Assembly (NCBI GenBank): GCA_964652345.1
Contig: CAZZBO010000001.1
Location: 3,892-67,891, forward strand
Source: an uncultured Candidatus Saccharibacteria bacterium
GTDB taxonomy: Bacteria; Patescibacteriota; UBA1384; CAZZBO01
Direction of reading: 5' to 3'
DNA: 64,000 nt
In this document: positions 5,095 to 5,300 of the stretch, piece after piece
Layout of the letters: each line of letters begins with the position of its first letter
Position numbering within the stretch: position 1 is the first letter of the stretch
Program-made: the position numbers and the translations under genes
The notes under the pieces: generated by a model
Told to the model about the DNA's origin: nothing
Seen by the model: only the letters and a program-made list of their open reading frames with translations
The model's database searches: none

Positions 5095-5300
5095 CCTGCG
5101 AATGGGTTGGGTGGGGCAAGGGCAACATCAACTCTGGTGGCGTATTTTGCTTTGCAAAATACGCACTCCAAATCCGCCGAAAAAAGAGCCGTTGGAAACG
5201 AGGGCGAGGCGGAAGGGGGGTGTGGGGGGAATTCCGCCTCGCCCGAGCCGAAGCGAAGCTCCGCCACCGAATTTCGTGCCAGTTGAAAACTGGCGTGCCA
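5095..5300. repeat. GC-rich structured repeat element, copy A (58-nt module plus long hairpin)
   Basis: 58-nt module at 5105-5163 is near-identical to 8420-8479 and includes a perfect 10-bp hairpin CGTATTTTGC-TTT-GCAAAATACG. A 13-bp GC stem GGGCGAGGCGGAA(5202-5214)/TTCCGCCTCGCCC(5232-5244) has a 17-nt G-rich loop. Additional hairpin GCCAGTT-GAAA-AACTGGC lies at about 5277-5294. Confidence 0.55.

Follow-up and report, generated by a model that had tools for sequence, protein, structure and literature searches.

The 64,000-nucleotide stretch of an uncultured Candidatus Saccharibacteria genome analysed here (the window) contains a restriction-modification (R-M) operon on the minus strand, and the methyltransferase gene at its head is preceded by a GC-rich block of hairpins at 5077-5302. 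The question raised by this locus is what the block is and whether it serves the operon that follows it. The original prediction, made from the letters alone, was that it is a copy of a repeat element that might act as a terminator, as an insulator or as a leader RNA for the methyltransferase-endonuclease pair. Comparison with related loci suggests a different answer. The block does not look like a dedicated regulator of this operon; we consider it probable (roughly 0.65) that it is a truncated mosaic copy of a long inverted-repeat arm, belonging to small integrative cassette elements that are widespread in Patescibacteria, a group of ultra-small, uncultured bacteria.

A block of palindromes at the head of the R-M operon

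The start codon of the methyltransferase (5035) and the stop codon of the open reading frame (ORF) for the C-terminal part of a deaminase (5344) are separated by a gap of 308 nt. Within this gap the block takes up 226 nt and is 58% GC, compared with 33% for the window. The margins of the spacer, 5036-5076 and 5303-5343, are AT-rich and lie outside the block, so that the repeat element does not fill the entire gap as had been claimed. When the whole spacer was folded and compared with dinucleotide shuffles the z score was -4.7 for the minus strand and -3.9 for the plus strand, none of 100 shuffles equalling it, and the four hairpins of the block are each individually significant against shuffles. 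The GC content, the shuffles and the hairpin tests thus bear out the description of a GC-rich, multi-hairpin spacer of 308 nt, and the element does sit at the head of the R-M operon. The parts of the spacer are listed below.

5202-5214 pairing with 5232-5244: hairpin B, 13-bp stem, 17-nt loop reading C6-ACA-C6 on the gene strand (z = -5.2, -27 kcal/mol)
5208-5238: 31-nt core of hairpin B, GGCGGAATTCCCCCC-NNN-CCCCCCTTCCGCC
5140-5164: hairpin H2, GCGTATTTTGC-TTT-GCAAAATACGC, 11-bp stem (z = -5.1)
5278-5294: outer hairpin of H2 type, GCCAGTT-GAA-AACTGGC, 3-nt loop (z = -6.0)
5091-5096 pairing with 5121-5126: A3 hairpin, GTTGCC...GGCAAC, C-rich loop on the gene strand (z = -2.1)
5077-5130, minus strand: module A3, the promoter-proximal end of the arm, in which the A3 hairpin is followed by TAAGGAACTCCC
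5166-5201, minus strand: linker with a conserved T-run and GGCGG motif (T6 on the gene strand, A6 at 5180-5185)
5245-5302, plus strand: inverted inner-arm copy, in which the H2-type hairpin at 5278-5294 is followed by GTGCCACC
5036-5076, minus strand: likely promoter segment, AT-rich, 41 nt, with TAAAAT 6 nt before the ATG and the palindrome TTGTA-TTT-TACAA at 5038-5050

The module of the block nearest to the gene consists of the A3 hairpin, which was absent from the list of the original prediction, together with GGAACTCCC. As the four hairpins are perfect or near-perfect palindromes they can fold on either strand. The 13-bp GC stem-loop that had been described is hairpin B (5202-5244). Two of the other hairpins are present with small corrections: the loop between GCCAGTT and AACTGGC is GAA (3 nt) rather than GAAA, and the perfect hairpin of the 58-nt module has a stem of 11 bp rather than 10 bp.

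The block belongs to a family of inverted-repeat arms

Parts of the block recur within the window, in keeping with the proposal that it is a copy of a repeat element. The region 5077-5163 matches 8397-8479 in the same orientation, with 88% identity over 87 nt and 98% over 59 nt, and 1551-1590 is the reverse complement of 5203-5244. The window has two occurrences of the 31-nt core of B, where 0 are expected, and within the 64 kb there are two copies of B and two of module A, all of them at cassette boundaries. The block also behaves like a repeat in contigs from other samples. Logan short-read contigs of the same strain that carry the same proteins (samples SRR8476675, SRR30024180-82, SRR15603312 and SRR33558617) all end inside the GC-rich blocks, in both arms.

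Beyond the window, the core pattern GGCGGAATTCCCCCCNNNCCCCCCTTCCGCC has an exact match in at least 119 species-representative genome stretches, nearly all from Patescibacteria and from many of its classes, and it also matches three stretches from two contigs of a viral collection. As the search was for exact matches, it biases the apparent invariance of the 28 specified bases. Seventeen loci, the window included, have two copies within 8 kb; 16 of these are arranged '+ then -', one '- then +' and none in tandem. The spacing of the paired copies is 1.5-4.6 kb and the paired arms reach 299 nt at 100% identity. With 16 of the 17 pairs inverted in this manner, the copies of B are the cores of inverted-repeat arms.

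The cargo between the arms is mostly an R-M system with a controller-type helix-turn-helix (HTH) gene, the small XRE-type HTH proteins matching models of R-M controllers. N4/N6 and C5 methyltransferases are found together with CfrBI, HaeII, HinP1I, TdeIII and Mrr endonucleases, and other cargo includes major facilitator superfamily (MFS) transporters, AhpC peroxiredoxin and repair genes. No recombinase was found in the cassettes between paired arms, and no direct repeats or target-site duplications flank the arm pairs examined. A search of the literature in full text gave no description of this element family, and a recent paper on gene exchange in Patescibacteria is silent on it.

Some of the exact core matches are in bins labelled otherwise (L013, L023, L029 and L065, Gammaproteobacteria; L048 and L053, Methanomicrobiales and Methanoperedens; L027, L043 and L076). 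These matches in bins of other phyla or of archaea could be mis-binned Patescibacteria contigs or instances of real transfer. Among the stretches from IMG/VR, L006 is a whole 4386-bp 'viral' contig that corresponds to a cassette bounded by two arms, and L005/L007, from a 77-kb 'viral' contig, has a full arm ahead of an HTH gene.

Anatomy and covariation of the arms

The arms are of more than one type. On the strand with the C-rich loop, the type found in the block (type II) begins on the outside with a pseudo-tRNA end (TGGYGGTG...TTCGAAC) and continues inward through GC-rich sequence of about 250 nt, in which hairpin H1 lies, to B; after B come a T-run and then GGCGG, an optional H2, an optional A3 with TAAGGAACTCCC, and the AT-rich promoter of the cargo. 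Type I, to which the arm at 1501-1712 of the window belongs, is shorter and has in common with type II only the pseudo-tRNA end, B and a T-run/GGCGGC inner end. B is the sole sequence common to all arm types; none of its 28 specified bases varies, and the stem next to them covaries: at the first pair outside the core, GC is found in 33 of 89 distinct copies, CG in 27, TA in 10 and AT in 8. In an alignment of 14 sequences, eight pairs are altered at both positions, with a score that none of 500 shuffles attains. Three stem pairs of A3 change on both sides across 14 copies, and the position of H2 is taken in relatives by other stems (GCCAGTT, CCAGC, GCCAAT). The covariation shows that pairing is under selection. 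The mismatches in the stems of B, H1 and H2, 58 G.T against 41 A.C, have no clear strand preference and therefore do not pick out a single transcribed strand. Conservation of the C6-N3-C6 loop in more than 100 species argues for its recognition by a conserved factor.

The arms also have a direction. The T-run and GGCGG are found 11-15 nt after the stem of B in 58 of 122 distinct copies, and on the mirror side in 15 of 122. An HTH gene on the same strand follows B at 180-240 nt in 13 of the 15 copies with an A3 end (type II) and in seven of the nine with a 'beta' end (type I), making 20 of 24 together, whereas this is so for none of the 19 copies with an 'alpha' end. As the block in the window carries A3, it is a promoter-proximal arm, and the arm at 1501-1712 is the distal one. 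About 95% of copies have the B loop in one fixed polarity with respect to the flanks outside and inside it; the C-rich loop is flipped relative to its flanks in L011, L044, L069 and L119 (2847).

Two further variations were seen. In L072 (940-1060) a nested GC hairpin of about 35 nt is inserted in the loop of a B variant, upstream of an orthologous controller-methyltransferase-endonuclease operon. The outer arm of type II (L019 1687-1770 and its equivalents) contains a long AT-rich hairpin with 28-nt arms and a GCGCGCG-containing loop, preceded by an A-run and followed by a T-run, which is the layout of a bidirectional terminator; the window copy has no such hairpin.

A serine recombinase and tRNA genes accompany the arms

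Clustering of the ORFs across loci brought out a family from 22 loci with Resolvase, Recombinase and Zn_ribbon_recom domains. To judge by this domain content these proteins are large serine recombinases (LSRs), and the closest solved relative of the family is the SPbeta integrase. The LSR gene adjoins one arm on its outer side, and most of the 21 matching ORFs are directed away from that arm. In six loci out of six (L019, L073, L121, L101, L085 and L096) it is flanked by inverted repeats of its own, which we call D arms, of 87-157 nt at a constant spacing of 1415-1483 nt. In 13 loci the 3' end of the LSR gene overlaps, in antisense, the 3' end of a tRNA gene, the tRNAs being those for Ser, Gly, Gln, Phe, Lys, Ala, Val and Pro.

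The junctions were read in L019, L073 and L121. S1 joins the flank to the pseudo-tRNA end of the far arm (flank|P'), S2 joins a D arm to the near arm (P|P') and S3 joins a D arm to the tRNA (P|tRNA). The left half of S2 is the left half of S3, the right half of S2 is the right half of S1, and the core common to all three is 4-6 nt long (GTGG, GGTG and TGGCGG, respectively) and corresponds to the CCRCC end of the tRNA. From this pattern S2 is recognisable as an intact, inverted phage-type attachment site (attP), and S3 and S1 as the hybrid sites attR and attL. In L010 the LSR has both D|arm junctions, and hence both attP copies, intact. The arms of L019 are 299 and 124 nt long at 100% identity, and an arrangement of two unique segments split by long near-identical inverted repeats is found in L019, L073, L121, L101, L085, L096 and L010, and not in the window.

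Further features of these junctions were noted. The LSR ORFs stay open through the D arm into the antisense tRNA (L019 6597-6788, L101 6396-6611, L073 7229-7437, L121 247-418), so that the last 40-60 codons come from the repeat and the target and would change on excision. Both putative attP half-sites carry TT(G/T)GAAAA(A)T in dyad symmetry, at differing distances from the core (L121 1885-1950), and the copies without a recombinase that adjoin tRNAs (junctions of L111 and L118) look like deletions between TT(G/T)GAAAA(A)T repeats.

The relatives allow an intact element to be reconstructed. It would comprise an LSR gene and a cassette of cargo, in most cases a controller-type HTH gene with an R-M system, that has a promoter of its own, these two segments being split on both sides by one long inverted repeat made up of a D arm of about 90-160 nt and a GC-rich hairpin arm of about 140-300 nt. 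Each copy of the repeat would hold an attP at the D/arm junction. Recombination of one attP with the 3' end of a tRNA gene would give the order flank|arm-cargo-arm|D-LSR-D|tRNA, and we infer that a circular form with two attP sites, resembling the yeast 2-micron plasmid, precedes integration. The hairpins would be DNA palindromes maintained by selection on pairing, which mark, and probably insulate, the boundary of the cassette immediately before the promoter of the cargo. The invariant core hairpin may be the junction at which arms or cassettes are exchanged, by homologous or site-specific recombination.

A probable decayed island at tRNA-Ser

Measured against these relatives, 1501-8559 of the window appears to be a decayed island of two cassettes that ends at tRNA-Ser. 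TGGCGGTG occurs at 1501-1508 and at 8552-8559 in direct orientation. An SdpI-like gene and an AT-rich flank adjoin the first copy, and tRNA-Ser is followed by 30 nt that match the D arm of L101 and L114. The junction at 1501 resembles attL (and S1), and that with tRNA-Ser (8552) resembles attR. No LSR gene is encoded in the 64-kb window, which makes the window copy a decayed derivative rather than an autonomous member; the recombinase would have been lost, with two cassettes left between the attL-like end and the tRNA. Read along the minus strand, the first of these consists of an H2/A3 remnant (8479-8397), an HTH gene, an inserted insertion sequence (IS) and the split deaminase gene, and the second of the A3/H2/B arm (5244-5077), the methyltransferase, the endonuclease, a 137-aa ORF and a type I arm.

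Within this island, the block would be the promoter-proximal arm of the R-M cassette, fused at the core hairpin to the distal arm of the cassette before it. The part on the far side of B, 5245-5302, has 87-90% identity to the inner arms of L066, L014 and L017, where relatives have at this position about 250 nt of outer arm, attP and a recombinase gene instead. L119 is arranged likewise, B being flanked by an inner arm on each side. As 5245-5302 is an inverted inner arm, a single B links the end of one cassette to the start of the following one, and our reading of 5245-5302 is that it is the distal arm of the deaminase cassette, which comes before, with the fusion at B. The R-M cassette is bounded by arms of two types, I at one end and II at the other, which have only B in common. 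The remaining features of the island are as follows.

1501-1712, plus strand: distal arm of the R-M cassette (type I), with the pseudo-tRNA end TGGCGGTG at 1501-1508, B at 1551-1590 (core 1556-1586) and an 'alpha' inner end to about 1712
1872-2285, minus strand: last gene of the cassette, a 137-aa ORF with no Pfam match, also in L001 and L002
2661-3443, minus strand: TdeIII-family type II restriction endonuclease (PF09520, E = 2.8e-94)
3440-5035, minus strand: N4/N6 DNA methyltransferase, 531 aa, with motif I DPFSGSGTT N-terminal, SPPY C-terminal and an N-terminal extension of about 60 aa
5344-5901 and 6057-7016, minus strand: split adenosine-deaminase gene
6985-8037, minus strand: rve-family transposase
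8096-8302, minus strand: XRE-type HTH gene, headed by the copy at 8397-8479
8397-8479, minus strand: second H2 copy with a partial A3, without B, the promoter-proximal end of the second, upstream cassette
8480-8551, minus strand: remnant of a recombinase-flanking D arm, abutting tRNA-Ser(TGA)
8552-8641, minus strand: tRNA-Ser(TGA), with TGGCGGTG at 8552-8559
8552-8731: tRNA-Ser and tRNA-Arg

The arm at 1501-1712 has 88-95% identity to arms in L117, L023, L070, L015 and L013. The deaminase gene is disrupted, as had been noted, and lies in two ORFs. The ORF of the rve transposase (IS481/IS3-like) overlaps the start of a 319-aa ORF, the C-terminal part of which is the N-terminal half of the deaminase, and the upstream cassette looks as though it has suffered an IS insertion plus a frameshift within it. 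The N-terminal extension of the methyltransferase, about 60 aa, is shared with orthologues that have a separate controller gene; the operon in the window has lost its controller gene.

Other GC-rich or repeated sequences in the window are of a different nature. Within the cassette, the space between the endonuclease gene and the 137-aa ORF contains two GC-rich islands, at 2395-2545 and 2605-2650; their folding is no better than that of shuffles (z = -0.16), and among the fetched loci they are repeated only in same-strain contigs. The stretches at 11498-12739 and 19621-19711, with 71-83% identity over 36-91 nt, are apparently in glycosyltransferase-like genes; this is ordinary gene paralogy and unrelated to the hairpin block.

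Alternative explanations

The block lies directly upstream of the ATG with a significant fold, that ATG has no Shine-Dalgarno sequence, as had been read from the sequence, and three pairs of H2 vary through G.U on the gene strand, all of which would suit a dedicated cis-regulatory leader, or riboswitch-like RNA, of the methyltransferase-endonuclease operon. We nevertheless regard such a leader as very unlikely. Rfam at the gathering score finds only two tRNAs in the window, and when matches with E up to 5 were allowed over 1400-5400 the best of them reached 16 bits against cut-offs of at least 50. Cassettes whose cargo is unrelated begin with the same type of arm, the core hairpin recurs, in reverse orientation, at the cassette's 3' end, and the G.T and A.C counts given above have no clear overall strand bias. 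The original prediction had proposed a comparison of upstream regions of homologous R-M operons, and this goes against a leader: the orthologous methyltransferases of L023 (73% identity) and L072 (70%) are preceded by different arms, a type I 'beta' arm in L023 and the B variant with the loop insertion in L072, so that the type of arm is not tied to this operon. In both of these a controller gene lies between the arm and the methyltransferase, and the window is without one. Promoter-like (sigma-70-like) sites are present at the inner edge of the arm in homologues (TTTACA-17-TATCAT in L078, TTGAGA-17-TAGTAT in L019), and since they begin just inside the inner boundary the element would lie upstream of the transcript. 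A promoter scan of the window called no site at 5036-5076; the TAAAAT 6 nt before the ATG suggests that the methyltransferase mRNA is leaderless and starts downstream of the element. Other kinds of gene were considered for the arm and rejected. A tmRNA, a tRNA-like or another CCA-ending RNA gene is not supported by ARAGORN or Rfam, neither of which finds one there, and the pseudo-tRNA end is explained as an attP half-site. As for a protein-coding arm, its ORFs cluster only because the DNA is repeated, and the alignment has indels of 2, 3, 4 and 6 nt.

The effects of the block on transcription could instead be those of a stop signal. The original prediction placed the terminator of the deaminase here, with a U-run directly after the big hairpin. 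That sequence, CUCUUUUUUC, is present, but its T6 run is 13 nt from the end of the stem of B, where a canonical U-tract begins 0-2 nt after the stem, and a terminator scan called none at B in the window, L007, L078 or L019. A classical intrinsic terminator at B was thus rejected, for although the stable GC stem is present, the geometry of the U-run speaks against it. A related suggestion, compatible with a cassette arm as one of its sub-functions, is that the arm has been selected for transcriptional insulation, with B and the T-run stopping inward read-through at both ends and so shielding the R-M promoter. On the strand that reads inward the T-run keeps a fixed distance (58 of 122 copies, with 15 of 122 for the mirror side), both arms face inward, the module abuts the cargo promoter, and in 33 of 47 folds of the family B is enclosed by a helix made with the 5' flank; on the other hand the U-run comes 11-15 nt after the stem, with no terminator called, the last base pair is within 2 nt of the T-run in only 14 of the 47 folds, and type I arms are without this geometry. 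We put this forward tentatively, as something that may be so but that we would not expect. Of the earlier idea that the block couples or insulates R-M expression, insulation is the plausible part, the A3 module being promoter-proximal with an HTH gene next in 13 of 15 copies. Taken as a whole, the repeat, its position at the operon head and a plausible insulation survive from the original interpretation, and the leader RNA and the terminator do not.

Two proposals concern the nature of the repeat itself. That core hairpin B is a site of recombination for excision, insertion or swapping of cassettes, like attC or pdif, with the arms there to present it, would explain why B alone is common to all arm types, with 28 invariant bases beside a covarying stem, why the window and L119 have a single B between inner arms, as expected of a cassette-cassette junction, and why the ends of the cassette in the window, of types I and II, have only B in common; the rare flipped loops in L011, L044, L069 and L119 also fit. 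It is doubtful all the same, as the mapped crossovers are at the pseudo-tRNA end and not at B, no copy was found in which a solo B has an outer arm on each side, neither serine nor tyrosine recombinases are known to use a core built as a 13-bp dyad about an asymmetric centre of 17 nt, and ordinary homologous recombination at the shared 40-50 bp could yield the mosaics. To an autonomous intergenic repeat of the REP/BIME, BOX or Correia kind, or one like a miniature inverted-repeat transposable element, next to the R-M operon by chance, we give little credence. It would account for a modular, hairpin-rich block with variable combinations of modules at which contigs break, but there are only two copies per module in 64 kb, all at cassette boundaries, the orientation in inverted pairs is strict, there are no target-site duplications, and the association with recombinase and tRNA genes is tight. 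Two other candidates were set aside. Flip/flop hairpin ends of a linear replicon, which the inverted ends of about 100 nt of L006 had brought to mind, are at odds with a loop polarity fixed in about 95% of copies and with contigs ending inside the arms. A DDE transposon with terminal inverted repeats does not fit the lack of duplications and of a transposase inside, the rve gene at 6985-8037 looking like an unrelated IS insertion.

We therefore favour a cassette arm, and several observations tell against it. The relatives are all metagenome-assembled, and long perfect inverted repeats are hard to assemble, though the layout recurs across assemblers and studies. The LSR is seen in about 22 of the 119 loci within the approximately 8 kb available for each. 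The role given here to core hairpin B is putative, and the recombinase crossover maps 50-250 nt from it. The window copy has no outer arm, attP or recombinase and its assignment is by homology of the module sequences; it is a fossil, and this limits what the locus alone can show. The empty tRNA-Ser site was predicted to read ...TTTAAACT|TGGCGGTGAGGG..., and one metagenome scan for it returned only three unrelated loci. Neither an empty site, nor an excised circle, nor any other direct sign of mobility was recovered, the same-strain contigs all breaking in the arms.

A larger proposal extends the cassette arm to the phylum. Patescibacteria may exchange cassettes throughout through a serine-integrase analogue of the integron at tRNA genes, with the C6-N3-C6 hairpin as the junction for excision, stacking and exchange of cassettes that are mostly R-M systems, and the window would then hold a stack of two cassettes joined at one hairpin of this kind. 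This is speculative, and we think it rather unlikely in so strong a form.

Implications

The local reading, of an odd structured spacer at one R-M operon, is replaced by a more general one of a cassette-boundary hairpin in more than 100 species of Patescibacteria. An element made of a recombinase and a cassette is a possible major route by which reduced genomes gain and reshuffle defence genes. As the recombinase and its pairs of attachment sites can be read from the junctions, they would serve as integration tools in bacteria that have so far been hardly amenable to genetics, and the invariant hairpin is a handy probe for such cassettes in metagenomes. For annotation, GC-rich structured islands in the AT-rich genomes of Patescibacteria should be compared with this family before they are called regulatory RNA.

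Comparison with known systems

Furuta, Abe and Kobayashi 2010 (PMC2853133) described R-M units flanked by long inverted repeats and R-M units with an integrase in tRNA genes, and treated them as two separate forms, with repeats of 26-65 bp and tyrosine integrases. The elements described here resemble both forms, in that long inverted repeats enclose R-M genes and no transposase, and a site-specific recombinase accompanies these genes where they are integrated at a tRNA 3' end, but differ in having the two features in one element. The repeats are also longer (140-420 bp), structured and GC-rich, the recombinase is a large serine recombinase, and a second, intact attP would lie inside the repeat. 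The tycheposons of Prochlorococcus (bioRxiv 10.1101/2020.12.28.424599) are 10-20 kb in size with replication modules and mostly tyrosine recombinases, 27 of 937 using large serine recombinases, and in them the lineage of the integrase sets the tRNA that is targeted. They too are cargo elements with site-specific integrases at tRNA genes, and decay to islands with partial tRNA remnants. Our elements, by contrast, are about 4-7 kb with only a recombinase and one cassette, and they possess long inverted repeats and a conserved hairpin, neither of which is described for tycheposons.

In the yeast 2-micron plasmid the FLP tyrosine recombinase inverts DNA between FRT sites and thereby amplifies the copy number. 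The similarity lies in two unique segments between long near-identical inverted repeats, with the recombinase in one segment and a site in each repeat; here the recombinase is a serine integrase with attP-type sites, and inversion and an episomal state would be hypothetical.

The attC sites of integrons are in direct orientation, vary in sequence and are cut by the tyrosine recombinase IntI, and the pdif sites of Acinetobacter are 28-bp XerC/D sites that flank modules in inverted orientation, the modules having no recombinase of their own. Like these, the arms place imperfect palindromes at the boundaries of cassettes with or without promoters, but their core is invariant, they are hundreds of bases long and the mapped crossovers are elsewhere. 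Near the sites only serine recombinases and one rve transposase were found, and no IntI tyrosine recombinase; the pairs are inverted, and 28 core bases are identical in at least 119 species (exact-match search) where attC keeps its structure and varies in sequence, so that the family does not behave as attC sites do. REP/BIME, BOX and Correia elements are dispersed in tens to hundreds of copies per genome. They are likewise modular hairpin units in intergenic DNA that can affect the expression of neighbours, whereas the arms described here are paired around cassettes and tied to a serine recombinase and tRNA genes. In none of the systems compared does a serine integrase go together with an invariant hairpin, one exchangeable cassette and a long, structured inverted repeat that contains two attP.

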